Source: Naegleria gruberi
Lineage: Eukaryota
DNA: 64,000 nucleotides
Assembly: GCA_000004985.1 (NCBI GenBank)
Contig: GG738847.1
Direction: 5' to 3' (one strand)
A program made the position numbers and the translations under genes. The notes below the pieces were generated by a model, which was given only the letters and a program-made list of their open reading frames with translations, was not told where the DNA came from and ran no database searches. Of the stretch, positions 1 to 58,936 are shown in pieces. How positions within the stretch are numbered: the first letter of the stretch is position 1; every line of letters starts with the position of its first letter.

Positions 1-642
1 TGGACCAATTTGTTCTGGTTTCAATCCTTGTTGAATTTCTTTCTGGATGTGATTCTTCAAATCTTGGGCGGATCCCAACTTTTCAAATTCGAGTTGAGTT
101 TGAGGGAAACTCAAGTGAGCTAATTCTTCTAAGGTCTTTTCATCACCAGCAACGTTTATTGATTTGTTCTTTAATTGTGGATTCAAAGATGCTTCGACAA
201 CATACTTGGCAATATCTGAAGTGTCAGTCAATTGGATTCTGACATTCAAATCTCCATAGTATTTAACAGTGTCATTCTCCTTTTGGAATAAGAAACTTGG
301 AAAGAAAGCATAACTATAGAATAATCCATTGTGAATCAATAGATAGTCAACTTGGTTTTGAGATTGCAAATCACTAATCAATTTCTTCTTTGGATCGATG
401 AGGAAACTATCACCTAATTGCAAATAATCTTGGAAATTGAAACCGTAACTTGAAGGAACAAACTTTTTAACACCACTCAACTTGGCAGCATTCAATAATT
501 TCAGTTGACCATCATAAACAATTGACTGATCTCCAGAAAGTGCGCTTACAATGACTTCAATTCCTTTGAATAATTGAGCCAAATCTTCAACACTTGAAGT
601 TACAACATCTCCCTCAATAATGTGAGCATTAGAAATATTCAT
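1..642 (-). CDS. NmrA-like / isoflavone-reductase-family NAD(P)-binding protein (exon; 3' part continues past window start)
   Basis: Minus-strand ORF from ATG at 640-642 is open through position 1: MNISNAHIIEGDVVTSSVEDLAQLFKGIEVIVSALSG...LGSAQDLKNHIQKEIQQGLKPEQIGP. The pattern matches the central and C-terminal parts of NmrA/PCBER-type reductases. The GxxGxxG Rossmann N-terminus is missing, so an upstream exon is likely (possibly near 880-960). Confidence 0.5.
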   Translation of the reverse strand, partial: MNISNAHIIEGDVVTSSVEDLAQLFKGIEVIVSALSGDQSIVYDGQLKLLNAAKLSGVKKFVPSSYGFNFQDYLQLGDSFLIDPKKKLISDLQSQNQVDYLLIHNGLFYSYAFFPSFLFQKENDTVKYYGDLNVRIQLTDTSDIAKYVVEASLNPQLKNKSINVAGDEKTLEELAHLSFPQTQLEFEKLGSAQDLKNHIQKEIQQGLKPEQIGP

Positions 643-1086
643 TTACTGGCCATTTAAATTAAAATAGAGAGATAGTACGCAGTGAGTGAGGAAAAATTTG
701 TACGCCCTAAGACACACCATCGGGATTGACAAAGAGTGCATGGACATACATTGTTATTCCAAGCTTGAGGAGCGCAAACATTCCATAATGGAATTTTTCA
801 AACTTCCAAACAGTGGTTCACATTTTCAATGTTTCTCTTTTTGTTGAAGAGGAAAATTACTCTCCGTCCTCCTACTAATACTAATACAGCAACCTTCTTT
901 AATTCTCTTCTTTCTCTAACTGCCATTGAATACAAAGTGTTGAGGGAGTAGATGCTTGTTCTTCAGTGGTGGCACTAGCTCTTGATGTGAAAGGGTTAGA
1001 CATTTTCTAGTATTACATAATACTTGTTTGGCCGTATATTGAAAACTCTTAATTTACTAGAAATTGGAAGTATTAAGGAAGTGAAT

Positions 1087-1205
1087 GGCTACGGCCATAT
1101 CACGATTCATGCACCTCATCCCGTCCGATTTGAGAAGTTAAGCATCGTCGAGCCACATCAGTACTGAGGTTGGAGACAACTTGGGAACCTGTGGTGCTGT
1201 AGTCT
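1087..1205 (+). rRNA. 5S ribosomal RNA gene (dispersed chromosomal copy) followed by a T5 run
   Basis: GGCTACGGCCATATCACGATTCATGCACCTCATCCCGTCCGATTTGAGAAGTTAAGC...AGTACTGAGGTTGGAGACAACTTGGGAACCTGTGGTGCTGTAGTC. The 5' and 3' ends pair (GGCTAC with GTAGTC, allowing G-U). Internal GGTTGGAGACAAC and GGGAAC blocks resemble Dictyostelium 5S. A TTTTT pol III terminator follows immediately at 1206-1210. Confidence 0.85.
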
Positions 1206-2749: not shown

Positions 2750-3565
2750 ATGATCAAAACAATTCTTGCTACCATTGCAGCAATTTCAACTTCAATTGGT
2801 TTTGGAGTTTTGGCTACACAACCCACGAGACAAGATCCTTATGGGGAATCTGTTATTTCACAAAATTCGAATAATCCTTCGTCTATTGTTCAAACTAATC
2901 TAGATGCCGCTATCAAGTATGAAAATTTGCAGCGTGAAGTTGAAATTATCAATCAAAAAATTCAAGATTTAATGTCACAACTTTCCACTCAGGGAAAATT
3001 AATCGAAACTTTGAAAACTAAACTGGAAATGGTAGAATTGAAATGGGTAACTTCTATTGTGGAATTAACAAGGAAACAAGATGGAGTTATTTGGACTTGT
3101 TTGATTGCAGGAGGTGGATTATTAACAATTTTCCTTATTTACAAGTTTATTTTAAGGAAGAAGAAAGTTTTTTCAAAGTTATTCGAAACAAATTCATCTC
3201 CTCCTCAGAAAGTCCCAAATCCAAAACCTTCTACAATTCTGTACTATTACCTTGCAGAGAAGGAATTTTTTGATGTACATTTTCAAAAAATACTCTCCTC
3301 ACTCAATTCTCATTCGAATGTTAAATTTGAAAGAGTTTCCAATCAATCTCAAAGTCATTTCACAATTCTAAACTTTAGCAATAGACAGAGAATGGGTAAT
3401 AACGTTCCAGATTCCATCAATCAATACCTTTCCATTGGTGGGAATGTGAACAGCACTGAATGGGCTAATAATGAAGTGAGATTATTTAGTGATGAGAATG
3501 GAAATGTTGATTGGAATGAAGATGTCATTGAAACTCTTATTAAGCTGGGAAATAAATTAGATTAA
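2750..3565 (+). CDS. Hypothetical secreted/type-I membrane protein with coiled coil
   Basis: 271-aa ORF. Signal-peptide-like N-terminus MIKTILATIAAISTSIGFGVLA. Heptad-rich segment (EVEIINQKIQDLMSQLSTQGKLIETLKTKLEMVELK). One TM helix WTCLIAGGGLLTIFLIYKFIL followed by RKKK. No recognisable catalytic motif. Confidence 0.45.
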   Translation: MIKTILATIAAISTSIGFGVLATQPTRQDPYGESVISQNSNNPSSIVQTNLDAAIKYENLQREVEIINQKIQDLMSQLSTQGKLIETLKTKLEMVELKWVTSIVELTRKQDGVIWTCLIAGGGLLTIFLIYKFILRKKKVFSKLFETNSSPPQKVPNPKPSTILYYYLAEKEFFDVHFQKILSSLNSHSNVKFERVSNQSQSHFTILNFSNRQRMGNNVPDSINQYLSIGGNVNSTEWANNEVRLFSDENGNVDWNEDVIETLIKLGNKLD

Positions 3566-3744: not shown

Positions 3745-5214
3745 CTATTTGTATTCAAGTAAATTATTAAAAACCCATCTAACAATTATGTTTTTAACTG
3801 CAAGACTCTTAATTTCAAGTGGTTGTGCAAAGGCATGACTAATCTTTGCTTCTTTGTCACCATTAAAACTAATCAAAGCATCAATAATATTGTCCAAGTC
3901 ACGTCCTTTCAATTTGAGGTTTTGGGACTCTTCTTCATCCAATCCAACACCTTGCTCAGCATCTAATAATACCACTTTAACTTGCTCAGGGCTCCAACTT
4001 TTTGGCCTGCTTTTATCCAATAGATTATCTTGGATAATTAACATTCCACAAGCTCTTTGTAATGTTTTTGAGTTTGATGCTTGATTGGCATGCATTTGAG
4101 AGGATCCAATATTTGATGTCAAAGGAGTGTATGAAGATTCAATGCTTGAAAAAGAAGGTTTTTGGGGGAATCCAACATGATAACAAATCATTTTTCTATA
4201 CAGTTCTTCCTTTTTCTGGGTGTGGTCATGAAACAGAGTATACAAATCCTTGCTTAATAAATTCTCTAAGCCTTTTTTAGTTAACAATAGAACTTCGAAA
4301 CCTCCTTTTTTCAATTTCAACCAAGATTTTGTTCCAAATTTTGGCTTTGTGTAGCTTATTGTTTCATTCTCTAGATAGCATGTTCCTGTTATAAGAAGAG
4401 ATCCATAATTATTCGCATTTTTTTCTATAACTCGAAGTACGCTATCTGAATATCCCATAACTACCATTATTACTGTGAAGTGTAAATTTTCTCCATTCAA
4501 AGATGGCTTTTCTTCAACTGAATAGGTATTGGGTAAAAAAGCCGATGCTTGATTGATTTCTTCTTGCAACTTTGATAAAGAAAAATCCTTTTCATAGAGT
4601 TTCATTTCAAATAATAACAATTTTCTTAATACTTGTAATGGAGTTTTGTTCAGTGCTATCAATACATCAAATCCACTATTAATTTCTCCAGGAATAGCTG
4701 CACAAAATTGATTTTCACTCATAGCATCGTCTAACACTGAGGTGAATGATACGTAATTTGGATGTAGGTAATTACTAAACCCCATCTCTTGATCGTACTG
4801 TTGTTTTGTGCTAATTGGTGAAAATCCAGGGATTAAAATATTTTGTGTTAAAAAATTGGGAGGTAACTCTAAACTACTAAAAAATGTTTCTTTGAAAATC
4901 CCGCCACATAAATCCCCAAATACAGTAATTTCGTTCGTTTTTGTAAAAGAGAGAGTCAATATTTGTTCAGCTAATAAATCAATGACTGATAATTCCAACG
5001 CCTTTGAAGTGTGGAGTAAAATGGAATTATTTTGCAACAAATTATAGCGCACTCCACTTATTGATGTTTTGAATTTTGATAATTTCATTAAAATATCATC
5101 TTTTAGTAGCTTGGGTATATTAATCTTGACAGTCTTATCTTCCATGACTTGAAAATGCATTTTTAAATATGGAAGTATTTCAATAAAGTTTCTGTGCCTC
5201 TTATTAAAGTACAA
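3745..5214 (-). CDS. C-terminal continuation (or separate downstream cistron) of the P-loop NTPase gene; no recognisable domain
   Basis: 489 sense codons in the same frame as 5218..6489. The first ATG (MHFQVMEDK...) is only 57 nt after the TAG. A separate promoter in that space is implausible. Confidence 0.4.
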   Translation of the reverse strand: MYFNKRHRNFIEILPYLKMHFQVMEDKTVKINIPKLLKDDILMKLSKFKTSISGVRYNLLQNNSILLHTSKALELSVIDLLAEQILTLSFTKTNEITVFGDLCGGIFKETFFSSLELPPNFLTQNILIPGFSPISTKQQYDQEMGFSNYLHPNYVSFTSVLDDAMSENQFCAAIPGEINSGFDVLIALNKTPLQVLRKLLLFEMKLYEKDFSLSKLQEEINQASAFLPNTYSVEEKPSLNGENLHFTVIMVVMGYSDSVLRVIEKNANNYGSLLITGTCYLENETISYTKPKFGTKSWLKLKKGGFEVLLLTKKGLENLLSKDLYTLFHDHTQKKEELYRKMICYHVGFPQKPSFSSIESSYTPLTSNIGSSQMHANQASNSKTLQRACGMLIIQDNLLDKSRPKSWSPEQVKVVLLDAEQGVGLDEEESQNLKLKGRDLDNIIDALISFNGDKEAKISHAFAQPLEIKSLAVKNIIVRWVFNNLLEYK

Positions 5215-5217
5215 TTT

Positions 5218-6489
5218 CTAAAACTCATTAAACTGAAAACTAAAGAATTCTACACTTACTGTTTGAGATGGTATGGCAATACCAAAGGAATGGAGTAAAT
5301 ATAAATGAGCTACCAATTTGGCTTGTTCATCATTGCGCAGAGCAATCGTCACATCGTGTTGTTTTTGCTCAGATTTTTCAATAGCTTCACATATTTTCTC
5401 TTTTGATGATAAATTATTCAAGTTACGCAAAATGCTATTGAATGCATTTTCCATTATTCTTGGAGCAGTTCCAGTATATTCCACAAGAATATCTATGAAA
5501 TCATCAATATCATTTAAGCCTAACAATTGTAAAGCATCCAATAGTGTGATACACGAATTACCTTTTTGAACATGACTCTGTCTGAGCATGATTTCGACGA
5601 CCTGGTTTTCCATAGGTGACAGAAATACAAGACAGTAATCAGAAGGTGGACTTTTTTTAACATCTTGATTCTCTGTCAAAGCTAAGTGTACAGGAATATG
5701 ACCACTAAATATAACAGTGCTCTTATAGGGGATCAGAAGTGGCATTACTTCATTCCATAATTCTAGAAAGCGACTCAAATAAATATCACAACCTTCTTTA
5801 CATGTTGTCCATTTCGAGTCTTGCAATAGTTGCCCAAAATTATTCTGTAAAATTCCATCTACTTCATCAACAAGTACTAAATATCCTTCAGGTAAGGATG
5901 AATCAATATTTAAAGCTTCAAAAATAAGGTTAGCTCCATAATCGTTTTGGTTTGCAAAATCCAACATCTTTTGGTAAAAATCTTGTCTTTTCTGTAAAAG
6001 ATCTTGTGATCCATTTGGTTGGAATTTTGTTATAAATTGCTTGCAATATTCCTTAACCACGAAATCAGCAATTTTTTTGCTCATATCTGAAATACTTTCT
6101 TCCGAAGAGACTTTAAATAATCTAAAATCCAATTCAAATAGCTGTAAATCTTTCACCCATTCCGATTGTTGATCCCATTTTCCATATACCTCTCTAAATC
6201 TTCTGACCAAGGTTGTTTTACCAATACCAAAGGTTTGAAAAAGCGACACTAATTTAGCTTGGCTCAAGTTTTGTTGCTTCTTGTTTTGCACTAAAGTATT
6301 AACAATTCGTTCCGACTCATTTTCACGATTAACAAATTTAAGTTGTAATGCAGAGTTTTTGAGGTCTTCTTTTGTTATTAATACATGAGTCTGTGGAGAA
6401 GAGAAAGGTTTGGTGGTTTCGGGTTCTTGTTTTTGCTTTTTGTTTTTAGGACCATCACCTGCCATTACACATTTTGTGCATTTTTTCAT
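5218..6489 (-). CDS. P-loop NTPase (STAND/AAA-like), N-terminal segment; reading frame continues past an in-frame TAG into ORF 3745..5214
   Basis: 423-aa ORF. Walker A LVSLFQTFGIGKTTLVRRF. Walker B YLVLVDEVDG. The TAG at 5215-5217 is followed in the same frame by 489 more sense codons. Confidence 0.55.
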   Translation of the reverse strand: MKKCTKCVMAGDGPKNKKQKQEPETTKPFSSPQTHVLITKEDLKNSALQLKFVNRENESERIVNTLVQNKKQQNLSQAKLVSLFQTFGIGKTTLVRRFREVYGKWDQQSEWVKDLQLFELDFRLFKVSSEESISDMSKKIADFVVKEYCKQFITKFQPNGSQDLLQKRQDFYQKMLDFANQNDYGANLIFEALNIDSSLPEGYLVLVDEVDGILQNNFGQLLQDSKWTTCKEGCDIYLSRFLELWNEVMPLLIPYKSTVIFSGHIPVHLALTENQDVKKSPPSDYCLVFLSPMENQVVEIMLRQSHVQKGNSCITLLDALQLLGLNDIDDFIDILVEYTGTAPRIMENAFNSILRNLNNLSSKEKICEAIEKSEQKQHDVTIALRNDEQAKLVAHLYLLHSFGIAIPSQTVSVEFFSFQFNEF

Positions 6490-6568
6490 TATTGTTTGGC
6501 GAGAAGATCACCCGAAATCCCAAACAACAACTTTTATTTCTTGTTGGAATTCCAAGTATTAAATCCAC

Positions 6569-7112
6569 TTAGGGTTATTCACGAATTGAAAATGGAATGG
6601 AATAGAATGGAATGAAATTTTTCTAAAAAATTCTATCCAAATAATTCCGTGTCCAGAATTTTTTTTTAGAATTGGTTGTGAACGTTTATTACATTATTCA
6701 AACGTTGTAAACGTTTTAACGTTTTTTAAATGTTTAAAACGTTAAATATGTTTTTCTTGTAATAAGGAAACCATTATTGGAGGCCTCCAATAATCATCCC
6801 TATATTGTGATGATATAGTTGAGCTTGCTTAATGTCCTTAATATCTGTGTGGGCGGGAATCAAACTGATTTTCCATTTCTTTCAAATGTGTAAATACGTT
6901 TTCAACATTTAGAACGTTTCAAACGTTTTTAACGTGTTTAATCAGTTTAGTTTAATAAATTCTTTTCAAAAATTAAAAATAACCACCAACGAAATAATTG
7001 GAATTTTTTCACGGAATCATTCTGAATTATTCTAAAAAATTCTGAAAAATTCCGTCAATTCCATCAATTCCATCAATTCCGTCAATTCTTTCCAATTCGT
7101 GAATAACCCTAA
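6569..7112. mobile_element. MITE-like non-autonomous DNA element (about 545 bp) with 20-bp terminal inverted repeats
   Basis: Left end TTAGGGTTATTCACGAATTG (6569-6588). Right end CAATTCGTGAATAACCCTAA (7093-7112). These are perfect reverse complements. Subterminal GGAATGG/AATTCCATC 9-mer tandem copies sit on both ends. Internal AACGTT-rich palindromic blocks are at 6700-6745 and 6895-6950. No ORF. It lies in the divergent intergenic region between the 6489 start and the 7365 start. Confidence 0.6.
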
Positions 7113-7364
7113 CTAGTAATTGATTTGACATTTTTTTCTAAAGATTTTAGGTTCTTTTTACGTGGCCCATTTCCAGCCATACAAATGATCCTTTTTTCAA
7201 TTCAAGTTGAAAAATAAGTTGAAATTTACATGTTCATTTGAATTTATTGCTTTTATTTTGTCTAATATAGTGTAAATTTACTGTCCAACAGTGGAGTCCT
7301 TGTACAGGAAATTGTTGCCTTCCTTGCAAATGATGAAGATAAATCCAACATTGGTCAAATTCTC

Positions 7365-8126
7365 ATGATGAGATTAGTTTGCAAAGATTGGAACGAAACT
7401 TTTATTAATTCTCATGATTTCTGGTACAGTATGATGATTACCAATTTGGATAAGGGTATGAAAGCAAGAGGAATTGAAGAGAAGGTTGAAATTCTTTCAC
7501 ATCCCAATCGAAACAATACTCAGTTCATGTTAAATTGTATTCGAAACTGTTTTCTTGCTCAACAATCGATTGACTGTTTGAAATCAGTGGAAGCCGAACA
7601 ATCAATGTGTTATGAGCCTGCTATCCTTAACGAATCCAATGACGAATTAGTTTCCGAAATGATTCGCCAACTTTCACCTTACATCTTTATCCAGAAAACC
7701 TCTTTTGATTTCTTTTCTTATGATCAATCAGAATGTGAATATGATTTTATCATTCCAAATATTCAAGGAAATACCGAATTGACTGAACTATATTTTAAAG
7801 TTTATAGATGCGATTAAGGATGTGGTAATGGTTCACTACTAAGATCTATTGAAGTAGTTTTCCAAGAAGAAAAAGAAATTCTAAAAAATGAAGTTTGCTA
7901 CGAGTATGATGGCTCACGCTCAGAATACGTTGCAGATAAGGAGATGATTAAGGTTGTTATGGAGAGAATTGGGTTGAGTGCAGAAATGATAAAATCTAAA
8001 GCTTGTTTCGATGAATTTATGATTGCATTGTATTATAAAGCAGTTGTGGGAGTAATTCCTATTGCTCTATGTGAAAGAGATATGTTTTATATTGATAGAA
8101 CAAGCAGAATAAAAGATATTATGTAA
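7365..8126 (+). CDS. Hypothetical F-box-like protein; ORF interrupted by in-frame TAA at 7815-7817
   Basis: ORFs 7365..7817 and 7944..8126 are in the same frame (579 nt apart) with a single TAA between them. The frame is open upstream to 7266, encoding LVQEIVAFLANDEDKSNIGQILMMRLVCKDW (F-box-like L..EI..F and VCK.W) with no in-frame ATG. An ATG at 7330 is offset by 1 nt. Confidence 0.4.
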
Positions 8127-18148: not shown

Positions 18149-18231
18149 CGTAATGGAAAGACTCAACCGTAAACCACACACTCTCAAACACACACCACAA
18201 CAATTGTTTACGGTTGAGTCTTTCCATTACG
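18149..18231. repeat. Perfect 26-bp inverted repeat (hairpin, about 31-nt loop) spanning the start codon of the 18153 gene
   Basis: Arm 1 is 18149-18174 CGTAATGGAAAGACTCAACCGTAAAC. Arm 2 is 18206-18231 GTTTACGGTTGAGTCTTTCCATTACG, the exact reverse complement. The ATG at 18153 lies inside arm 1. Arm 2 encodes FTVESFHYE. Confidence 0.8.
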
Positions 18232-19217
18232 AGAAATTGAGAAAGGAGAAGGAAGAACAAGTAGCATTGGAGCTAAAAAAGTTGAGAAAGGAAAAAAAAG
18301 AAAAGGAAAAGCTTGCACAAGAAAATAAGGAATTGCAAAGAAAACTTGAAATGATTGAAAGAGAAAAACTTTTTAAATTGGAGCAAGAGAATGAACTTTT
18401 AAAGAAGGCAACTCAAGAAGTAAAGCAAGAAGAAAAGAAGCAAGATAAACAAGAAACGAAATTGAAAAGAAAGGTTAATGATGAGGAAGTTTCCACACCA
18501 ACAAAGAAAACTAAAACAGATCCAACCATTACAGTTGTGAATAATTATTATGCTAGTCCATCAAGTATTGAAACAAAAAAGCAATCAAGCCCAAAGACTG
18601 TAGCTACTCAAGAGGGTTGCAAACACAAACGCATTTACGATCAATTTATTTACATCTACTGTTCAATGACAGGTCAGAAACCTAAAGAGTTTATTGACAA
18701 TCCAAAACAGGTTCAAGAATTTATTACCTTTTTTGAATTGAAATTGAAACCGAAAACACTTGTAAAGAACTTCAAACCTGATCCAAATATGACAACCTCT
18801 GACTATCAGGAAATTCTCTTCTACCTTCTCAACAGCATGAAGGGTAAAGAAGGTGAAAAGAAACAAGATGAAGTCATATCTGGTATTTTAAAGGGCAAGT
18901 TGAAAAGCAAATTTAACAAAGAGCTTGTGCCATACCTCATCGCTTTTGCCTATAACAATGTAGAAGGAAAAAAGCAATTACAAGGAAAAATGGAGGATTT
19001 TTTGAATGATAAAACTAAAGTTGATTCATTCATAAAGACATACAATCTCGATTTAAATCCAGAAACAAACAAACCATACCTTAAAGCTGAAACTATTTCC
19101 AATAACAAAGCTAAGATTATGGACATTGTAAAGAATCCAAAAACTCTGAAAGATTTGTTGAATGAAGCATGCAAGGAGGTGATTCAAAGATTCTTTGGCT
19201 CTCCAAAAACTAAATAG
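18153..19217 (+). CDS. Hypothetical Lys/Glu-rich coiled-coil protein
   Basis: 354-aa ORF. Residues 25-110 are KEKEEQVALELKKLRKEKKEKEKLAQENKELQRKLEMIEREK...; the C-terminal half is less biased. No catalytic motif found. Confidence 0.5.
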   Translation: MERLNRKPHTLKHTPQQLFTVESFHYEKLRKEKEEQVALELKKLRKEKKEKEKLAQENKELQRKLEMIEREKLFKLEQENELLKKATQEVKQEEKKQDKQETKLKRKVNDEEVSTPTKKTKTDPTITVVNNYYASPSSIETKKQSSPKTVATQEGCKHKRIYDQFIYIYCSMTGQKPKEFIDNPKQVQEFITFFELKLKPKTLVKNFKPDPNMTTSDYQEILFYLLNSMKGKEGEKKQDEVISGILKGKLKSKFNKELVPYLIAFAYNNVEGKKQLQGKMEDFLNDKTKVDSFIKTYNLDLNPETNKPYLKAETISNNKAKIMDIVKNPKTLKDLLNEACKEVIQRFFGSPKTK

Positions 19218-36691: not shown

Positions 36692-36708
36692 AAAGTAATT
36701 GATTAAAT

Positions 36709-38151
36709 TTAATGTTCATGGATTGTCTTGGAAACAAGTAAAATTGAGTCTCTGTTGAATCTAGTGACAAATCTCAATCCATAAATACATAATGGAAGTG
36801 TAAACAGAGCAAACACTGCGAGTATAATATTACCAGGAATCGAGTAAATAAACCAGAACGACCAACCAATATAAACCCAAGATCCTTCATGAATTGAAGT
36901 CATAACTCTCTCACAAAAACCTGTATGTAAAGCATCAGAAGCCTGACATACGATATGTACTATTGGGAATGCTACAGCACAAACAGGAATAAGGAAAAAT
37001 ATCATAGAAATGAAAAATGTAAGTAAAGTTATTGGAATTTTCATGGTAAAATAAAGTACAGCAAATCCAACATCTCTACAAAATGCATACTCGAAGCAAC
37101 TATTGTATGATCTTTTTAAATATTCCCAAATACCTCCTCTACTTTCAGATTGGTTGTCAGTGTTGGTCCTAACAGGCTCCTCCACATTAGTATTCAAGAT
37201 GGTGTTAGTTTCAACTATATTTGTTTGAGGCATTATCATTACGCTCGATCTATTATTACCTGTTGATGCCCTTGAAAGTGGATTATTTGAGTGAATATCA
37301 ACTGATCTTCCTAGCATAGTTCCATAATGTTGATAATAATAAGAGTTGTGAGATGTTGGGGAGTGCATTGAGTCTACAGAATTATCAGAGTCATCAGAGT
37401 CGTAATGGTGGAATGATTCATCCAAATTATTTGTTTGTAAAATTTGTTTCATTGGTGAGGTTGGAGAAAGGAAATCTACACTTCTGGCAGGAGGTGTTTT
37501 GAAATAATAATCTCTTTCTGGATCATAAATTGCCCTAGGATCCTGTGTTGCAAGTGAAATATTGTAGGAACTGAATGTATTGGCAGTATTTACATTTTCA
37601 TTCAGTCTACTTTTCTTAATTGGAGAAGGATTAGCCAAATTGGAATCATCGACCTGAATTAAAGGATTTTCTTCCTCCTCTTTGAAATTAGATCTTGCTG
37701 TCAATGAATGAAATCCTTTGACCAATTGTTCCGTGATATTCACTAATTTGAAACGAGGAGCAATTTTATGATTCATTGCAAGCAAATGTCTTGCTAAGAA
37801 TATTTCTACAAGTACAAAGATTCGTGTCAGCCATGCAACACCTGCAAACATGAACATTCCAATAAATATCGGAGAAAAGGCTGTTGCTATTAGCAATCCT
37901 AAATAAATAGTTATAAAATATAGAAAACTCAACGGAAATGATAATAATGTATGTACAAAAGCAAAATAAGGTCTCCTCGTAAAACATGACTTGATAATAT
38001 GTTTTAAATGTTTACGTATTTTAGATGGTTGTATATAATGAGAGCAAAACCATCCTATCCAAGATTTATCCCTCTTCTTTCTCTCGGGAAAGTAGGAAAT
38101 ATATGTTGCATCAACTAGGCTGGAATTAGATCTCCTCCTAGAACTGGACAT
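36709..38151 (-). CDS. Hypothetical multi-pass membrane protein with low-complexity central loop
   Basis: 480-aa ORF. Two hydrophobic helices near the N-terminus (FAFVHTLLSFPLSFLYFITIYLGLLIATAF, IFIGMFMFAGVAWLTRIFVLVEIFLA). A Ser/Asn/Thr-rich loop. Two or three C-terminal helices (AVLYFTMKIPITLLTFFISMIFFLIPVCAVAFPIV, WSFWFIYSIPGNIILAVFALFTLPLCIY). Confidence 0.45.
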   Translation of the reverse strand: MSSSRRRSNSSLVDATYISYFPERKKRDKSWIGWFCSHYIQPSKIRKHLKHIIKSCFTRRPYFAFVHTLLSFPLSFLYFITIYLGLLIATAFSPIFIGMFMFAGVAWLTRIFVLVEIFLARHLLAMNHKIAPRFKLVNITEQLVKGFHSLTARSNFKEEEENPLIQVDDSNLANPSPIKKSRLNENVNTANTFSSYNISLATQDPRAIYDPERDYYFKTPPARSVDFLSPTSPMKQILQTNNLDESFHHYDSDDSDNSVDSMHSPTSHNSYYYQHYGTMLGRSVDIHSNNPLSRASTGNNRSSVMIMPQTNIVETNTILNTNVEEPVRTNTDNQSESRGGIWEYLKRSYNSCFEYAFCRDVGFAVLYFTMKIPITLLTFFISMIFFLIPVCAVAFPIVHIVCQASDALHTGFCERVMTSIHEGSWVYIGWSFWFIYSIPGNIILAVFALFTLPLCIYGLRFVTRFNRDSILLVSKTIHEH

Positions 38152-38619
38152 GATTTTTAAAAACTAATTTTAAATATACGTAATTCAACTATCAAATTAT
38201 TATTATATTATCATTAATTTAAATCGATTTGCAATTTTCCTTCCGATTGTTGGATTGTTGAGCGATGATTGTTGAGAGATTTTTTTTCTATTTTAAAAGA
38301 AGTAACAAAAGTAGTCATCAAGCGAGCTTTCTCTTATATTTCTCTTAGTATTAATTTGTGTATCTTGTTTTCTCATTGTCATCATAAAGCACATATTACA
38401 TTGCCATAGAAAGAGTGCAGAGTTGTGATGGAATTTTTATCAAATAAATCTCAAAGAAAAAATAGCAACAAATCCACAAAAGAAAGGAATTTTTTGTCGA
38501 TTCAATTAATTGATTTTTAAATTCCTTCCAATTTTGTGTTTATTATTCGGATCATCAAATCATTAATTTGATATGATCATCAATATACATTACTACAAAC
38601 AATCTAGATTTAAATAAGA

Positions 38620-41208
38620 ATGAAACGACCAATAACGACTAACAGTGGAAATAATGGTAGAAGTAGTTTGACCCGAAACTCTACAATAATCAACAATAAT
38701 TCTTCGGGAAGCATCATGAATACTTCTACAACTACAAATTTTACCACTACTAGTAATAGCGGAACGAATAATAGTAGTGGAACAATATATTATGCAAATA
38801 ATAGCAATAATAACAATCAGAATAATAGAAATACAATGAATGGAAATGGTACAACCTATGCAAGGCCAACATTCGGAAATCCTGTGCCACCAATGATAAA
38901 TACCTCCAATCAACAAGGCAATTCTAATAACGGAACATCTGGTGCTTCTACATTTGTTCCACCTGTGTTTCACAGGCCCAACCCAGCTCCATCGAATGCT
39001 TCATCTAGTACTAGGCCTACTGGGACTGGGACAGCTACAACTCTAAATGTTGAACGCCAGCAGTTCATTCCACCAAAAAATCAACAATTTCAAAGACCTC
39101 AATATTCAACACCCACAAACACACAAAAACGAATTAATAATATTCCACACTCTGGACTTTCCACCCCAAAGTCTGGAAAAAAGCAGCCTTTGCATTTGGT
39201 GAGCTGCCTAAGTCCTCCTTCAACTCAATTTTCCACACCCAACAGATCTACTCAAACACCAACCACACCTGTACAAACAACCTCAAAGCCTAATCCATCT
39301 TCTTCTTCGACTAATACATCTACTCTATTTCCATTTACTTCCAATTCTAATAATTCTTTCATTTCGAATAATAACAATAGTTTTAACAAACCACCACAAA
39401 CAACATCTCATGCTAGATTTGTAATACCAAATAATTATAAACCTCAGGAACAAGTTTCTAGATTGCAATCTTCTACCAATTTATCAGATTCACAAAAAGA
39501 AAATGAGGAAATTGAAAAATTAAAAGCAGAAATTGAATTACTTAGAGGAAATCTTAATAAGAAAAAATTGGAAAATGAGGAATTAGTGAGTGCCAAAAAA
39601 GAAATTGAGGAACAGCTACTTGCAGTACAATCCAAGATGGAAGAAAATCAACAGGAAAATAGTGGAATGCTTGATGAGGATGATGACTTTTTACTTGCTG
39701 TATTGGATGATATCGATGATGAGAAAACGAAAGATGATAAGTCAACCGAGGAAGCCTCACAAAATTCTCAAAAAAAGGAGACTGAAACAGAAGTCCCAAC
39801 TGAGGAAAAGATTGATAAAACAGATGAGAAGATTATTCCACTTATACCCGAAACAGCACCAAAGAAGATATCTAAAAAAAGAGTTAAATGGAAAAATAAG
39901 AATATAGCAGATCTCCAAAAAGATCCTGATCTTCACAAAGCCCTTTACAAACTATTAGTATATAAGGGAAACAGCGATATCAATCCAATGGATCCAATGG
40001 ATACAGATGAGCTAATTAATGAACCACTTTCGGGTAAATTATGGAAGGCTCACAGAACTATTTCAAATGATCAATCTAAAATGTATTCACTTCTGCCAAT
40101 TTTGAATTCCTATCTTAAACAAGCTAAAGAAGAGCAAGACATTGAATTATTCACATGCACACTGGAAACCATTTTAAAATTAGTATTAGAAAGTGAAATG
40201 TTTAGAATTGCTTTTATTGAATCGTTCTCAGAAAGCATTACAGAACTAAAGAGAAAAAAGACTATCCAAGAAAATGGCTATGCCCAACACCCTTTATTCT
40301 CTAGCACAACCATTATCATTCCAGATGGAAAGAAAAGTTCTGTTAAAGGCAAGCTTAGAGAAAAGAGAAAGTATCTACATAACTATTTAAATGATGTAGC
40401 ATACCAACCCGATTATATATTCGATTCTAATATGGATTCTATATTATTTAACCCTGAAGAGGTTCCATTAATTCGTAATGAAGTATCTGAAACAGATCTT
40501 CTTTCAGATTTATTAGGCTATTTCGCTGGTCTTCCAGATTATTTCAATCAAAGGCAGGTAGATATTCTTTGTACGATATTGGACATTGTTAAAACTCTTG
40601 CCATATGGTCTCCTGAATCAGCCCTGGCGAAATTTAATAATTTGATTGAAAATAGTTTGATGAAACAACCAATCACTATCAAAACCATTTTCTCAAATAA
40701 TAATGTTGAACTGATTCAAAAATCCTTAGAAGTCCTTACAATTCTCGTAAAATCAGAAACCATCAGATCATCATTGCAGAGTAATAATATTCTTACTAGA
40801 GTTTCAGCATTCTTGAATGTTGAAGTAGGAACTACAGAAGAAATGTTACAGTGTAGAAGAATGATTTTAAGACTATTCCACTATTTAGCGTTCCTATGCC
40901 CTGATGGAATATCTTTGTTGAAAGAAAAGCACAACAACAATAATATTGTGTTTGACGCCATGATTCTTCTGCTCAGAAAAGAGCTAGAAAACATTGCTTT
41001 ATTAGAAGATTTTTCTAACGAAAGTGAAAGAATTTATCTGATTAGAGACATTATTGTTCTCTTCAATCATATTTCTCGGTTGAATAGTCCAATACCCTAT
41101 GTTTCGCCATCTCTTAGGTTAGACTATATTTATGCCAAGACTACGATATCAATTATTCGAGAAAAGTCAAATTTCAAGGAGAAGTTCCAATTAGATGAAA
41201 TGAAATAA
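38620..41208 (+). CDS. Hypothetical 862-aa protein: N/S/T/Q-rich N-terminus, coiled coil, acidic DDDFLLAVLDDIDDE patch, helical C-terminal domain
   Basis: Single ORF. Coiled-coil segment KENEEIEKLKAEIELLRGNLNKKKLENEELVSAKKEIEEQLLAVQSKMEE. Acidic patch right after it. The C-terminal 450 aa have predicted helical-repeat character. No catalytic motif. Confidence 0.45.
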   Translation: MKRPITTNSGNNGRSSLTRNSTIINNNSSGSIMNTSTTTNFTTTSNSGTNNSSGTIYYANNSNNNNQNNRNTMNGNGTTYARPTFGNPVPPMINTSNQQGNSNNGTSGASTFVPPVFHRPNPAPSNASSSTRPTGTGTATTLNVERQQFIPPKNQQFQRPQYSTPTNTQKRINNIPHSGLSTPKSGKKQPLHLVSCLSPPSTQFSTPNRSTQTPTTPVQTTSKPNPSSSSTNTSTLFPFTSNSNNSFISNNNNSFNKPPQTTSHARFVIPNNYKPQEQVSRLQSSTNLSDSQKENEEIEKLKAEIELLRGNLNKKKLENEELVSAKKEIEEQLLAVQSKMEENQQENSGMLDEDDDFLLAVLDDIDDEKTKDDKSTEEASQNSQKKETETEVPTEEKIDKTDEKIIPLIPETAPKKISKKRVKWKNKNIADLQKDPDLHKALYKLLVYKGNSDINPMDPMDTDELINEPLSGKLWKAHRTISNDQSKMYSLLPILNSYLKQAKEEQDIELFTCTLETILKLVLESEMFRIAFIESFSESITELKRKKTIQENGYAQHPLFSSTTIIIPDGKKSSVKGKLREKRKYLHNYLNDVAYQPDYIFDSNMDSILFNPEEVPLIRNEVSETDLLSDLLGYFAGLPDYFNQRQVDILCTILDIVKTLAIWSPESALAKFNNLIENSLMKQPITIKTIFSNNNVELIQKSLEVLTILVKSETIRSSLQSNNILTRVSAFLNVEVGTTEEMLQCRRMILRLFHYLAFLCPDGISLLKEKHNNNNIVFDAMILLLRKELENIALLEDFSNESERIYLIRDIIVLFNHISRLNSPIPYVSPSLRLDYIYAKTTISIIREKSNFKEKFQLDEMK

Positions 41209-41213
41209 TCCTA

Positions 41214-43189
41214 CTAGTTCTTTTTTAAACCTCTTTGAATCTTTTGTTCTATGAGCAATTTTGCTCCATCAATAACATGATGATATTCAATAGTTCCATT
41301 GGCAACCAAGAACAATCTTCCACCAACTGTTGCTGATTTCTCCTTACATTCAACATTAATTGCAAATGAAAAATTGGATGATTGGAAATTACTAATTTTA
41401 GAGCTCTCAATAACTGTTGATTTTCCTTCCTCAATACTTTCAACAAAGGCTCTGTGATTGAGTTTATCACTACTCTCTCCCCATTGAATTACCACCTTAT
41501 TCAAGAGCTTGTCAAAAAACATTCTAATAACTCTTTGCTTTGCAGTGGTTTTCTTCCCTCTCAAAACAAGTTTCTTTGGTACGTGCATAAACATTCTGAG
41601 TCCCTTTTGTAACACATCAAGATTTATCTTGTTTCTCTCTGTGATTTCCTCTTCTGGTTTTTGATAAAAACCTGATTGATTCTTAATTGGCTCTGGTTCT
41701 GCCAATATCACACCCACTTCAGAAACATTCTTTGCTATTTTTTGAGGGAAATCACTCGTTGGATTCAATTCACCAAGAGATGTATTCAACTCTACACCGT
41801 CAAATATTTGAACGTGAGAATGTGGAGGTCTATAAATGAAAGATCTTCCTTGCAGCAATACAAGGACCTCACTTCTATCCTTATCAGAAACCAAGAATGA
41901 GTATGGATTATCGTCCCTGTACCGTATTGTCAACTTTGTGGGCATGTCTGGATCAATCTCAACATCACCCTCTATATCAGAATATGCATGTGTTGAGAAT
42001 GGCTCTTTTGTCTCTGAATCAACGTGCCTCAAATGATTCGAATAGAGTGATAAAGTATGTGGGAAAAATCTACCTCTCTTATCAATGCCAAAAACTTGGA
42101 AATGATGAAGAGAAACATTAATATCAGGCGTAAATGTAATTGCATTCGGATTCTTTTCAAAGTTAATCTCCTCATCATAATGTTCTCTAAACTCTTTTGC
42201 ATAGTATAATAGACAATTGATTATTTCATTTCTGTCCTTACTTAGAAATATTAACTATTAAGATAATTTTAATAATATTAACAATCCAAGAGTTTTAACA
42301 ACTTACTGTATCCAACTTATTAAATTGAATTCTGAAAAGTCTGAAATTTGTATTAATGTCATGTTCCTCATTGGTATCGAACGAAATCTTTTTCAAATCC
42401 ACAAAGTTTCCTTGTTGAAAGACACGTTTTGAGAATGGATCAAATACAACTATTTCCTTAGTATTGACCTTAATACACAACACTACTCCAATTATCTTCC
42501 TTCCAAAATATATTGAAAAAAAACTTACCTCTCATAAACACTTCTCCCCTCTCAGTGTAAACATAAACTGGCCAACTTGGATGCAAATACAAGAATCCTT
42601 CATCAATTTCATGGAAATCATCTCCAAACTTTTCATTTTCATGAACCAGCACACTTGTTTCTGAATTAGTATTACTGTGATTACTCGAGCTGTTGGATAG
42701 AATAAGTGATCCTTTTGCTTCAAATCGTCCTGGGGTTGCTGATTTGGATTTTCCAATCTCTCCTATTGCTGTCCCTCCAAGTGGATCAATTGCATTTTGA
42801 AAGGTTGCATTTCTAGTGGTAGTAGTAATAAAGTTTGCAGACTTGGAATTTCTGTAACGGTCATTTCTGTCATGTTCTGTTTGTTGTGAATGAATTATTG
42901 AGGAAGGTTGGGCATGTGATATGGAAACTCCAATAGTCGATAATTGATTACGAAACATTGAAGAGGCAGAAGATGATGATGGATAGTGTTGAGGGAAGGT
43001 TTGTTCGGAGGTTCTTCTCATTGATGATTCCATATTTTGCTGTTGATGCTGTTGTTGTGATGCATATGTCGAGGATTGTTGAGGCATTGGTTGTTGTTGA
43101 CGATGCTGTTGCTGGTGGTGAAATTGAGAGAAAAGTGATTGAGGTAGATGCTGAGGTGTACTGTTTGTAGAAGCATAGAAATTGGGCAT
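41214..43189 (-). CDS. Hypothetical Gln-rich protein with C-terminal beta-rich (PH-like?) region; 3 exons with about 57- and 50-nt introns near 42457-42513 and 42245-42294
   Basis: Exon 1 43189-42514 (Q/H/S-rich, ...LHPSWPVYVYTERGEVFMR). Exon 2 about 42456-42295 (NTKEIVVFDPFSKRVFQQGNFVDLKKISFDT...). Exon 3 about 42244-41214 (…RHVDSETKEPFSTHAYSDIEGDVEIDPDMPTKLTIRYRDDNPYSF...). Donors are GTAAGT in both cases. Confidence 0.45.
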
Positions 43190-43415
43190 TTTTTTCTGTA
43201 TGTTTTATAACGGATAGTTTTGGACACTTACCTTAATGAATGTTGGATTGAAACGGACGAATTTGCATTACTAGCACTGCTGTAATGAATATGGATTTTG
43301 TGAATGAGTTTATACAAGGTTTTTTATTGAAAGTGGAAGAAAAGTATTGAGGGTGTTTCTCGTATTATTGAGATTGGTAATTGTGTACAAATTTAATCCT
43401 ATTTAACATGTTGAA

Positions 43416-44089
43416 TTATTCTTGCATGGCATCAGCTGGAAGTGTTTGATCTGAGAACAAGTCAACTTCTCTGCTACCATACTTATCTACAACTTTTACA
43501 ATAAATGATGGTGTGTTCAATAAAAGTCTCTTTTGAATTTCAGCAACACACATTCTTAAAACAATCAATGCTTCATTAAGATTCATTCCGTCCTTGTAAT
43601 GCTTGTCAAGAATTGACAATGTAAAGTAAGATCCGTAGCCATGAGCTCCATATTTAACTTCTTGCATACTTGAAAGATAATCGATATAATATAATTCAGG
43701 TTTAGCTCCTAATTATCCAATGGTAAATATTAAAATATTGATCTCAACTCACCTTCAATATCATCAACACCTCCGACCATAATATTGGTTTGATATGGAC
43801 CACTACGAAGGGCTTTAGCTAATTCTTGTCTCACAAAGTGTGCACTAGCTTTCACTGACAAGTTTGTATCATTTCTTAAACGGTACAAGTTCAAATTCTT
43901 TGTGATGAATTCGACAAATTGAACACGATCTCCTTGTTCTCCTTGAGCAGCAATAAGAATATTTTGATTTGGTACAGCTGTTATTTTGTCCTCAGTATCC
44001 TTCATCAAAATGATCGAGAATGAAGCTGTTGTATCAGCTGCCAACAAGGTGAAATCCTTTCCTTTCAATCCAATAACTGTGTCTCCCAT
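43416..44089 (-). CDS. PSMB2: Proteasome subunit beta type-2; 2 exons (44089-43753, 43708-43416) with 44-nt intron
   Basis: MGDTVIGLKGKDFTLLAADTTASFSIILMKDTEDKI...VQFVEFITKNLNLYRLRNDT...IMVGGVDDIEG, then donor GTGAGT and acceptor ATAATTAG, then GAKPELYYIDYLSSMQEVKYGAHGYGSYFTLSILDKHYKDGMNLNEALIVLRMCVAEIQKRLLLNTPSFIVKVVDKYG. This is collinear with human PSMB2. Confidence 0.85.
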
Positions 44090-44395
44090 TTTTCTAGTTG
44101 TATGATGTGTTTGGTGTTATACAATTTTTTTAAATTTATTTTTGTTTGTTGTTCTATTCTTATCCATACTTTCCAAGCTTTTAAATTTTCTTCTCTCATC
44201 AAGTCTAAAGAGTGAAGCAAATCAAGACTTTTATGTTTAATGAATATTGCAATATTCAGGAAGCTAGCCAACATGTTTAATGATAAAAGTAAATCTTGGA
44301 TTGTACAGTACCATAGAAGCATAAATAGCACAGAGTAATTAATAATATAACAAAATTTTAAAATATTTTAAAATTGAATTTTTTGAACTAAAAAA

Positions 44396-45637
44396 TGACC
44401 AAGAAGACTTCAACAAACACCACTGCCCCAACAAAGGCTACAACAACAGCTGCTACTACCACTAGCACTTCATCATCTACTTCATCTTTTGTTATTTTGA
44501 GTGATTCTGCTTTGGAAACTTTGGGTTTGAAGGGTAACAAGACGTACGTTTTTTAGTTTGATTAAAATAATAATTTATTCGGATATAGTGAACAATTCAA
44601 CACTGGTCTTAAACTTTTCGAAGAAACAACCGATAAATCTGATAGAGATACTCTTTTAGTATTGTTGGGCACTTTGGTTTCTGATGATAATTTGGATACT
44701 TTGATTGCCAAGATTAAATCTGCCAAAGACAACACTAGTCACGATATCATCAAACAACTCGCCTCTGTTTTCAACTTGATTACTAATGGCCAACAAAAGA
44801 CTAAATTATTTATTAATATTATTCAATTCATGATTCAACATGAAGAAGTTGCCACCTCTCTCAATATTTCTGCAATCGTTGACAATATTGAATCTGCTTT
44901 CACTGAATGGAGTATCTCTTCTAAGAAGGATAAGCAAGCTATTTTGATTGATTTGTCAAAGCTCTGTGTTAAACTTTCAAAGATGTATGTAGAAATAATT
45001 TTGAACTTTTTTAGTGACACTTTTTAGAAATGAAGCTTTTGATTTGATTATTAAATCATTGAAGTCTGGAGCTGAAGAAAGCGATAAGAAGGAATTAATT
45101 AATCTCTTTATTAGAAATCCATTCGAAAAATCTGCTGAAGAATTGAAAGAATTCGAACCAGAACTTTTTGGAGCTGTTTTGAGCTATCTTGACCAAGCTG
45201 ATGAAGCTGTTCCAGAAACTTTAAAGCAAAAAATCTCACAATATGAACAAACAGAATCTGTCATTTCTCAATTTGTTTCTGACTTGAAGGTCTTGAAATT
45301 CCTCGTTTCTTGCTCTGTTAAAATCCTCACCTCTAAGAAGGATATTGAACTTAAATATTCCGATATTGAAAAGTTGGCACCAAGTGGTGAAGTTGAACTT
45401 TTTGTTTGTGATATGATGGGAAGAAATTTAATTGAATGTAAGATGAATCAACTTGAACAATCCATTACTGTTCAAGCTATTAATTGCCGAGGTGCTGCTC
45501 ACAAGCAAGATTGGAAGAATGTTGAAACTCTTGTTTCTGTTTGGTCAAGCAAATTGGCCACAGTTTTGACCACAATGACCAATGAAGTCAATCCACAACA
45601 ATTCAAGAATGAAGTGAAACAACAACAACAACAATAA
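44396..45637 (+). CDS. PCI-domain protein, best match by pattern to eIF3 subunit M (Rpn9/CSN7 not excluded); 3 exons with about 45- and 43-nt introns
   Basis: Exon 1 MTKKTSTNTTAPTKATTTAATTT...LGLKGNKT, then donor GTACGT. Exon 2 ...NIESAFTEWSISSKKDKQAILIDLSKLCVKLSK (compare eIF3m DQVRKWISDWNLTTEKKHTLLRLLYEAL). Exon 3 ...KDIELKYSDIEKLAPSGEVELFVCDMMGRNLIECKMNQLEQSITVQAINCRGAAHKQDWKNVETLVSVWSSKL (compare eIF3m EISFDTMQQELQIGADDVEAFVIDAVRTKMVYCKIDQTQRKVVVSHSTHRTFGKQQWQQLYDTLNAW). Confidence 0.55.
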
Positions 45638-45638
45638 A

Positions 45639-46319
45639 TTACTTCATATATTCATACATAAATTGTTTGTGATTATCATTTCTAGTGGTATCATTGATAA
45701 ATCTCTTTTTCTTTTGTTGATTAGAGTCATTAGCTTGGTTCTTAAATATGGTACTATCAGTCCACTTTCTCTTTACAGTAAATGAATCCTCATCATCATC
45801 ATCCTTCTTACTACTTATTGGTTTTAATAATGGATTACTAGTCAATGCTCGTTCTTGTGTTGCAAGTCTTTCCTTCTCCTCTTTTGCTCTTTTTACTCTT
45901 TCCAATTCCTTAATTAGTTCATCATTATCAGAGTCACCATCAGAGTCGGAATCAGAAGATGTATTTAAATCATCATCAGAATCATCATAGTTTGATTTTG
46001 GAACTTTTGTAAATTCCTCTGTTTCTTCCTCTACAATTTCTTCAATTATATCCTTATTTTTTTCTTCCTCTATTGCTGGTATTATTGTTGATGATTGATT
46101 ATTCTTCTTTTTTTGTACTAATTGTTCTCGTTCTTGTAATTCCTTCTTTAAATCTTTATGTTTAATTTCTTCCTCATTTCCTTGCCCGATCTGTCTTGTT
46201 TTTAAGACTGTGTGGGAAGGCATTAAATATACAGATTGTGTATGTGATGGAACATAACGTTTATAACCACCTTGTGTCTCGGTTGCTTTTGCTGCATTAA
46301 ATGTTGGTCTTGATGACAT
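45639..46319 (-). CDS. CWC15: Spliceosome-associated protein CWC15 (AD-002) homolog
   Basis: 226-aa ORF. MSSRPTFNAAKA...PSHT. Acidic Asp/Ser stretch. KELERVKRAKEEKERLATQE. C-terminal SFTVKRKWTDSTIFKNQA...QQKKKRFINDTTRNDNHKQFMYEYMK, matching the CWC15 C-terminal consensus (KVKRRWDDDVVFKN...[22 protein letters not shown]). Confidence 0.85.
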   Translation of the reverse strand: MSSRPTFNAAKATETQGGYKRYVPSHTQSVYLMPSHTVLKTRQIGQGNEEEIKHKDLKKELQEREQLVQKKKNNQSSTIIPAIEEEKNKDIIEEIVEEETEEFTKVPKSNYDDSDDDLNTSSDSDSDGDSDNDELIKELERVKRAKEEKERLATQERALTSNPLLKPISSKKDDDDEDSFTVKRKWTDSTIFKNQANDSNQQKKKRFINDTTRNDNHKQFMYEYMK

Positions 46320-46715
46320 TTTTTATTTGATGCTTGTTTTCTAATAATACATTTGTCAATAATATATTCTTCTTCAACAATATTTTCAATTTTTTAAACT
46401 TATTACATTTGGATTAGACAATTTTATCATTTTGGCTATCCTTGGCAGAGTACTCTCAATCAATTTGAAATCGATAATATGCACGCGTAGATTGTTGCGA
46501 TATTAATCATCCAGATGACGCCAAAACCGAGAAGCCTATTCCGATAACAAACCCAATCAAAATTTCATCCTCAACAATTCCACAATAAAAGCTTTCTCTC
46601 CTTTGTGAAGAAGTACAATAAGAAAAAAACACAACAACCGACTAGCAGTATAAAACACTGAGGTTAAAAAGCAATCATTTAACATTTATAATTCAATAAT
46701 AATACAACAATCAAA

Positions 46716-47050
46716 ATGGGCATGTTTGGTTTCGTACTCGGACTTTCTGCTGGAATTTACATTACTAAAAGAACAATCATGAAGAATCACAACAACAAGC
46801 GTCTTTGAATAATGTTAGTGAAGAGGAGAAACAATCAATATGGCAACAATATTTGAATCAGAAAAAGATGGAAACTAACAGTCAAGCACTTTTGAATCGT
46901 CAAGAAGATTCCGATGATAACCATTCTCTTCTTTCACTTTCTAGAGAATACATTACAAGGATAAGAAATGAAAATTTTCCAATAATTCATGCACAAGAAA
47001 AATCAAATATTGATTCTCTCAATTCAAAGACAACTATTGAAAAGGATTAA
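46716..47050 (+). CDS. Possible small membrane protein (MGMFGFVLGLSAGIYITK...) whose frame appears to shift by 1 nt into ORF 46805..47050
   Basis: ATG at 46716 gives MGMFGFVLGLSAGIYITKRTIMKNHNNKRL then a stop. One nt out of frame, the longer ORF SLNNVSEEEKQSIWQQYLNQKKMETNSQ... begins with no ATG of its own. Weak. Confidence 0.2.
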
Positions 47051-47288
47051 GCAAATGTGACCAATCAGTCGCTATGAATAAGTGACTAACTTTTGGAAAT
47101 GAATTCAAACTCTCTTACTCGGAGCAACCCTTTCGAATGTGCTCTCGAATATTTAAGAAAATTCAAATAAAACAATTTGAAATTTAAATCATCATTGCAA
47201 TATCATGATAGTAATCTTAATGTCCTCATGAGGAAATCAATTCATATCTTTAATTTCCAATACTCATTGAATTTTATTAAAAAATACA

Positions 47289-58814: not shown

Positions 58815-58936
58815 TTTTTTGTAATGTTAAACTGGTTGTTGGCAAGTAATAAGTGGAAATACAATGAATAGAATGGCAAAACAATAGATGCTAATTGACA
58901 GTGGACTATTGTTTATATTGTGTTTGGAATATGTAT

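Follow-up and report, generated by a model that had tools for sequence, protein, structure and literature searches.

A small, non-coding inverted-repeat element, most likely mobile, that adjoins a short inversion in Naegleria gruberi

The DNA at positions 6570–7111 of the 64-kb stretch of the N. gruberi strain NEG-M genome analysed here (hereafter, the window) is most probably a small mobile DNA element of an ordinary kind, which adjoins a small inversion. It possesses terminal inverted repeats (TIRs), symmetric arrays of short motifs and a composition foreign to the locus, and a related strain contains an empty site whose boundary falls at the terminus of the element; based upon these characteristics, it is probably a non-autonomous class II (cut-and-paste, TIR) DNA transposon of MITE-like or foldback-like build, which would have been mobilised in trans. 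The TIRs, the small size without coding capacity and the insertion polymorphism are all characteristics of non-autonomous elements of the TIR type. A probable non-autonomous DNA transposon was also the reading offered by a first-pass annotation of this region, and this is supported by the finding that the orthologous contig of the related strain (L010, see below) lacks the element, with the homology ending exactly at the TIR terminus. The features of the locus are as follows.

6570–7111, no strand: whole element, 542 bp, 5'-TAGGG...CCCTA-3', non-coding; ends set by homology to L010
6570–6588, + strand: left TIR TAGGGTTATTCACGAATTG, 19 bp (20 bp with T6569), perfect complement of the right end
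7093–7111, − strand: right TIR, 19 bp, perfect complement of the left end
6591–6618, + strand: left subterminal repeat, 5.6 copies of a 5-bp GGAAT/AATGG unit (Tandem Repeats Finder), mirroring the ATTCC array of the right end
6681–6754, no strand: left array of AACGTT / AAACGTTT at about 9-bp spacing, inverted relative to 6896–6941
6773–6794, no strand: ATTATTGGAGGCCTCCAATAAT, a perfect palindrome of 22 bp within the central unique region (reverse-strand self-match 22/22)
6896–6941, no strand: right ACGTT-motif array, period 9, about 5 copies
7048–7088, + strand: right subterminal 9-mer array AATTCC(A/G)TC, AATTCCATC, 4.6 copies
6567–6569, no strand: left copy (ACT) of the candidate target-site duplication (TSD), identical to 7112–7114; CACT is also present in L010 at 809–812
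7112–7114, no strand: right copy (ACT) of the candidate TSD, identical to 6567–6569
7115–7272, no strand: inverted segment of 158 bp directly to the right of the element, starting AGTAA and ending AGTG; inverted relative to L010
7273–7277, no strand: filler TAAAT, 5 bp at the distal inversion junction, missing from L010

The first-pass annotation described an element of about 545 bp, bounded by a perfect 20-bp TIR at 6569–6588 and 7093–7112 and with ends reading TTAGGG...CCCTAA. The complementarity is indeed exact: the 20-mer TTAGGGTTATTCACGAATTG at 6569–6588 (+ strand) has its exact reverse complement at 7093–7112 (− strand), the pair spanning 544 bp, and these are the only two matches of this sequence in the 64-kb window when up to three mismatches are allowed (none was obtained in 100 dinucleotide shuffles). 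However, because the comparison with the related strain places T6569 in the flanking DNA, the true TIR is 19 bp in length and the boundaries of the element are revised to 6570–7111 (542 bp). The outer T and A that formed the 20th complementary pair (T6569/A7112) belong to the flanking ACT/ACT, and TAGGG...CCCTA is what remains of the ends as they were originally read. Beyond the TIRs inverted similarity persists at a lower level (82%) as far as about 45 nt, and homology between the two arms covers about 230 nt, as the global alignment of the left half with the reverse complement of the right half has a score of 103 in comparison to 20 ± 6 for shuffled sequences. The blocks common to both arms are the GGAAT repeats, ATTCCGTG and the ACGTT array. 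Outside the termini the arms have diverged and are now about 60–80% alike, whereas the last 19 bp are perfect, which suggests that selection has acted upon the termini and that they are not the product of a fresh duplication. When folded as single-stranded DNA, the element has a predicted energy of −84 kcal/mol (z = −7.1). Subterminal 9-mers had been reported at both ends; those on the right were recovered (4.6 copies of AATTCCATC), but the repeat on the left was found by Tandem Repeats Finder to have a 5-bp period (AATGG, 5.6 copies). The AACGTT palindromic blocks are present as described, with 7 of the 16 AACGTT sites of the window located inside the element, and clusters of this motif were found in no other intergenic region of the window.

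The interior of the element is non-coding, in agreement with the earlier description. No internal open reading frame (ORF) is longer than 34 aa, its concatenated six-frame translation had no match even at E ≤ 10 in a collection of 5.8 billion proteins, and nine short ORFs located inside or next to the element were all absent from the protein collection by exact look-up. Likewise, no tRNA was found, nor any Rfam match at E ≤ 1 within 6400–7300. The element has a GC content of 28% and contains 17 CpGs, giving an observed/expected (o/e) CpG ratio of 1.56, which is the highest value among 1,270 sliding windows, in which the ratio averages 0.43 (sd 0.22). The window as a whole is strongly CpG-depleted (mean o/e 0.43 in 544-bp windows), and the element is the sole region in it that lies well above 1. 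The depletion would fit cytosine methylation in N. gruberi, and the high CpG content of the element could reflect a young age, a foreign origin or the conservation of binding motifs.

No similarity was found between the element and L010, its own flanks, the adjacent inverted segment or the rest of the window, which indicates that it came from elsewhere. A single copy was seen, with none further in the 64 kb of the window or in the contigs of the related strain (22.6 kb); the term MITE-like thus refers to the build of an element with one copy within this scope. A transposase domain was not found in any of the window ORFs of at least 200 aa. A scan of JGI metagenomes with an 18-mer of the TIR yielded seven loci (GC 30–50%), each of them a single site with no partner TIR and no further similarity, and these chance-like matches were treated as such. 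In exact-match scans, viral contigs yielded no site for the TIR, the central palindrome or the 9-mer array; scans of GTDB genomes with the TIR and an AACGTT block gave no match for either, and no occurrence of the TIR sequence was found in the literature that was searched.

The main evidence for insertion of the element comes from a close N. gruberi relative of NEG-M, whose contigs are present in the ENA metagenome assembly ERZ929261. Protein search matches for the ORF to the right of the element are confined to an N. gruberi cluster, and through the second member of this protein cluster (P0010) we reached contig L010 (1,994 bp), which spans the site without the element. Positions 1–812 of L010 correspond to 5756–6569 of the window (98.4% identity), positions 943–1785 to 7278–8120 (98.0%), and positions 809–947 to 7272–7115 in reverse orientation. 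The homology ends exactly after ...AAATCCACT at 6569/6570, i.e. at the TIR terminus, and the junction in the empty allele reads CCACT-ATATT. Comparison with related strains for an empty orthologous site had been suggested earlier as a check, and such a site is present in L010 between flanks that are 98% identical, with the 158-bp inversion as a complication. The locus is considered orthologous because the collinearity extends to either side of it in two other contigs of this sample, L002 corresponding to window 5746–1082 (94–98%) and L001 to window 9614–8174 (99.3%), with L010 bridging the gap between them. The divergent arrangement of the neighbouring genes, with ORF starts at 6489 (− strand) and 7365 (+ strand), is as originally described, and their start codons are 875 bp apart in NEG-M vs 295 bp in L010.

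A control contig (L011; 11,179 bp) gave a single alignment of 98.0% identity, collinear with window 36702–47834, and thus large indels are not found everywhere. L002 lacks two further NEG-M-specific blocks, at 2463–2819 (357 bp) and 2872–3180 (309 bp), which have direct repeats (AACC and ATTCGAA) at their boundaries and no TIRs, and which overlap a 271-aa ORF at 2750–3565. Due to the occurrence of such TIR-less indels in the same pair of strains, presence or absence alone is no proof of transposition, and the exact coincidence of the boundary with the TIR terminus carries more weight.

The 158-bp segment that directly follows the element starts with AGTAA, the reverse complement of TTACT (7278–7282), and ends with AGTG, the reverse complement of CACT (6566–6569). 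These inverted duplications of CACT (4 bp) and TTACT (5 bp) are found in NEG-M alone, each of the motifs being single-copy in L010. As inverted duplications of this kind arise from staggered breaks followed by fill-in, the NEG-M arrangement is most simply taken to be the derived one. The TAAAT filler creates a 10-bp palindrome GTAAATTTAC (7272–7281), and both junctions in NEG-M are palindromic (ACT-AGT and GTAAA-TTTAC). With the CACT and TTACT motifs and their complements in brackets, the two arrangements read:

NEG-M: AAATC(CACT) - TAGGG...CCCTA - ACT - (AGTAA)TTGATTT...ATAT(AGTG) - TAAAT - (TTACT)GTCC
L010: AAATC(CACT)ATATTAG...CCAA(TTACT)GTCC

Inversion of L010 809–947 with duplication of CACT and TTACT predicts the NEG-M sequence exactly, except for substitutions and indels between the strains, the filler (TAAAT) and an extra block of 545 bp at 6570–7114. 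This block consists of TAGGG...CCCTA followed by ACT, which repeats 6567–6569, and as this is what the inversion model leaves, the element would comprise 6570–7111, with a 19-bp TIR and a 3-bp TSD of ACT. The ACT copies lie directly outside TAGGG...CCCTA, in agreement with the boundaries derived from the empty allele; a repeat of 3 bp has a probability of about 1/64 by chance, and its reading as a TSD rests upon a reconstructed inversion intermediate, because the neighbouring DNA is in the opposite orientation in the empty allele. The flanks ...CCAC and CTAG... are as given in the first-pass annotation, in which TA or TTA was proposed as a possible TSD. TTA and TAA do not form a direct repeat. 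TA...TA flanks do exist if the ends are read as GGG...CCC, and a TA duplication with such ends (as in Tc1/mariner elements and Stowaway MITEs) is possible, but five extra nucleotides (TAACT) are then required at the junction; no such addition is needed for ACT, which is therefore the more parsimonious and the likely reading.

In terms of the transposon interpretation, the element would have entered the NEG-M haplotype lineage by insertion between the two divergent genes, where the intergenic region was short (about 300 bp), probably with duplication of the target ACT, and the start codons that were formerly 295 bp apart would consequently have come to lie 875 bp apart. The GGAAT/ATTCCGTC and AAACGTTT repeats within about 200 bp of subterminal DNA are putative sites for a transposase encoded elsewhere in the genome, and by analogy with Ac/Ds and En/Spm they are likely to represent transposase-binding sites. 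The point of insertion is one of the breakpoints of the 158-bp inversion, and the order of these events may be envisaged in two ways. In a two-step scheme, the element could have landed on an ACT-AGT palindrome made by the inversion, leaving five bases unexplained, whereas in a one-step scheme breaks made during transposition could have inverted the neighbouring DNA, leaving about nine.

Among the competing explanations, the one that survives best is that the block represents resident, non-mobile intergenic DNA (e.g. a palindromic promoter module), which the relative has lost by deletion in the same inverting rearrangement. The 357- and 309-bp indels between these strains, with their 4- and 7-bp direct repeats and without TIRs, provide a precedent for this, the 3-bp direct repeat flanking the element could have served as microhomology, and a single copy is all that was observed in the window and the 22.6 kb of related contigs. 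Nonetheless, we regard this explanation as unlikely, as the end of the sequence missing from L010 coincides exactly with the terminus of a perfect 19-bp inverted repeat, the inverted duplications of 4 and 5 bp are found in NEG-M only and mark its arrangement as derived, and the CpG content of the block is unlike that of all other DNA in the window.

It is quite improbable that the palindrome was made locally in NEG-M by fold-back or template-switch replication, in an event of the same kind as that which gave rise to the adjacent inversion. No local template exists for it, the 542 bp being unlike the flanks, the inverted segment and the empty allele, and the arms are about 60–80% alike whereas the last 19 bp are perfect; against these points have to be set the overall character of the element, which is that of a long imperfect palindrome, its position exactly at an inversion breakpoint beside the junctions ACT-AGT and GTAAA-TTTAC, and the presence in the window of two other perfect inverted repeats of 21–26 nt without transposon features. 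A third alternative, that foreign or episomal DNA (from a virus, a Polinton-like element or an rDNA plasmid fragment) was captured and ligated into a double-strand break during the inverting repair, would account for the atypical composition (CpG o/e 1.56 vs 0.43) and for the coincidence of the block with a rearrangement junction carrying filler nucleotides. However, perfect inverted ends and symmetric subterminal motif arrays are unexpected for captured fragments, and nothing was found when viral contigs were scanned for exact matches to the TIR and two internal motifs, making capture very improbable. Motifs with an ACGT core are of the kind bound by bZIP-type factors, and arrays of them in a divergent intergenic position would suit a regulatory palindrome that is conserved, or a bidirectional promoter element shared by the two genes, the alternative named in the first-pass annotation, but scarcely any credence can be given to it, as it is contradicted by the empty orthologous site in a strain whose flanks are 98% identical, by the lack of AACGTT clusters elsewhere between the genes of the window, and by the different in-frame stops of the right-hand ORF in the two haplotypes, which give this region the look of one that is not tightly constrained. 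A secondary recruitment of the insertion as a promoter is possible.

A non-autonomous transposon thus remains the preferred interpretation, and in its build the element resembles several known types. The hAT end motif is 5'-YARNG, and the termini TAGGG...CCCTA fit it. The resemblance to Ds-type non-autonomous hAT elements (maize Ac/Ds) includes these ends (one Ac end is TAGGGATGAAA), a short TIR followed by about 200 bp of subterminal DNA that is dense in short CpG-containing repeats, and the location of a non-coding element near the 5' ends of genes; the subterminal motifs bound by the Ac transposase are AAACGG. However, hAT elements duplicate 8 bp, whereas the flanks of this element (AATCCACT vs ACTAGTAA) match at 2 of 8 positions, no 8-bp repeat is present at boundary offsets of 0 to 5, and no hAT transposase has been linked to the element. 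With dSpm/I-type non-autonomous CACTA (En/Spm) elements it shares the 3-bp length of its candidate TSD, a short TIR and subterminal motifs repeated in both orientations, but the defining CACTA/CACTG termini are missing, as the element ends in TAGGG. Its small size, AT-rich non-coding interior and insertion close to genes are reminiscent of Tourist-like MITEs (PIF/Harbinger, mPing), and if the ends are read as GGG...CCC the flanks become TTA and TAA, the PIF target; this assignment was rejected, as TTA...TAA is an inverted pair and not a direct duplication, T6569 is part of the flank, and the empty-allele junction is without TTA/TAA.

The long imperfect inverted arms composed of short subrepeats around a unique centre are similar to those of foldback-type elements (Caenorhabditis elegans Tc4, Drosophila FB); Tc4 makes a 3-bp duplication (TNA), equal in length to the candidate TSD, and FB is associated with local rearrangements. 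The arms of the present element are, however, much shorter and only about 60–80% alike, and ACT does not fit the TNA/CTNAG target of Tc4. Mutator was rejected as there is no 9–11-bp duplication (nor one of 8 to 12 bp at any boundary offset), Kolobok and piggyBac as there is no TTAA flank, and the telomere-like TTAGGGTTA at the ends of the element is regarded as a coincidence. No described superfamily fits both the termini and the length of the duplication, and the element is filed under none of them, so that the earlier statement that its family is not assignable still stands.

The window is gene-dense with a GC content of 31–38%, and its genes include those for a formin, an actin-related protein, FANCL, an ABC transporter and an adenylate cyclase, as well as one 5S rRNA gene. 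Five of its ORFs correspond exactly to annotated NEG-M proteins, e.g. EFC49761.1, diphthamide synthesis subunit 1. To the left of the element, on the − strand of 3745–6489, are two adjoining ORFs of 423 and 489 aa with one stop between them; they contain a P-loop-like GIGKTT motif and have no Pfam match. Neither a homologue of the 423-aa ORF nor an exact entry for it was found among the 5.8 billion proteins, so that the deposited N. gruberi proteins do not appear to include it. Within the first 244 codons, no more than 5 residues are different in the related strain. The gene to the right (window 7365–8126; L010 1030–1803) is in a single frame of about 253 codons in both haplotypes, with stops at different places, after ...YRCD in NEG-M (7815–7817) and at ...SVEA*QS in L010, and it looks like a decaying or oddly expressed gene.

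Elsewhere in the window, a perfect 26-nt inverted repeat (CGTAATGGAAAGACTCAACCGTAAAC...) with a 31-nt spacer at 18149–18231 overlaps the start codon of a 354-aa ORF (18153–19217), and the arms of a perfect 21-nt inverted repeat (TGTTTTGCCATTCTATTCATT) at 58558–58883, which are 284 nt apart, lie one in the coding region for the N-terminus of a FANCL-like protein and the other upstream of its start codon. The strain homology stops at position 1082, which is 5 bp away from one end of the 5S rRNA gene (1087–1205), and beyond this point L002 3938–7896 consists of unrelated DNA with an F-box-like ORF; this break at window 1–1205 is a synteny break or an insertion beside a Pol III gene.

A more far-reaching form of the transposon interpretation, which we consider doubtful, is that the element represents an undescribed Heterolobosea family, characterised by Ac-like TAGGG termini, subterminal arrays of CpG-containing motifs and a 3-bp TSD, whose integration made the inversion. 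According to this proposal, staggered breaks made by the transposase at two nearby ACT sites would have given rise to the 158-bp inversion. The insertion may also be heterozygous in NEG-M, because a 1,315-bp NEG-M scaffold (EFC35274.1, NAEGRDRAFT_55004) carries an L010-like allele of the neighbouring right-hand gene, with 171 of 174 aa identical to the L010 product.

Mobile elements of Naegleria are scarcely described in the literature that was searched; for Naegleria transposons, MITEs or Repbase entries it offered no more than the mention, in passing, that Kolobok occurs in this genus. An intact, strain-polymorphic TIR element such as the probable non-autonomous transposon described here would provide evidence of recent DNA transposition in N. 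gruberi, and it could serve as a marker of strains or haplotypes. With the insertion, the divergent promoter region has become three times as long and has gained an array of CpG-rich motifs with an ACGT core in a CpG-poor genome, and due to these changes the insertion could alter the expression of the neighbouring genes. The element itself is of a routine kind and leaves current understanding unchanged. The one feature that deserves further attention is the adjacent inversion, and the exact coincidence of the element with its breakpoint is a modest natural illustration of how transposons are linked to local rearrangement.
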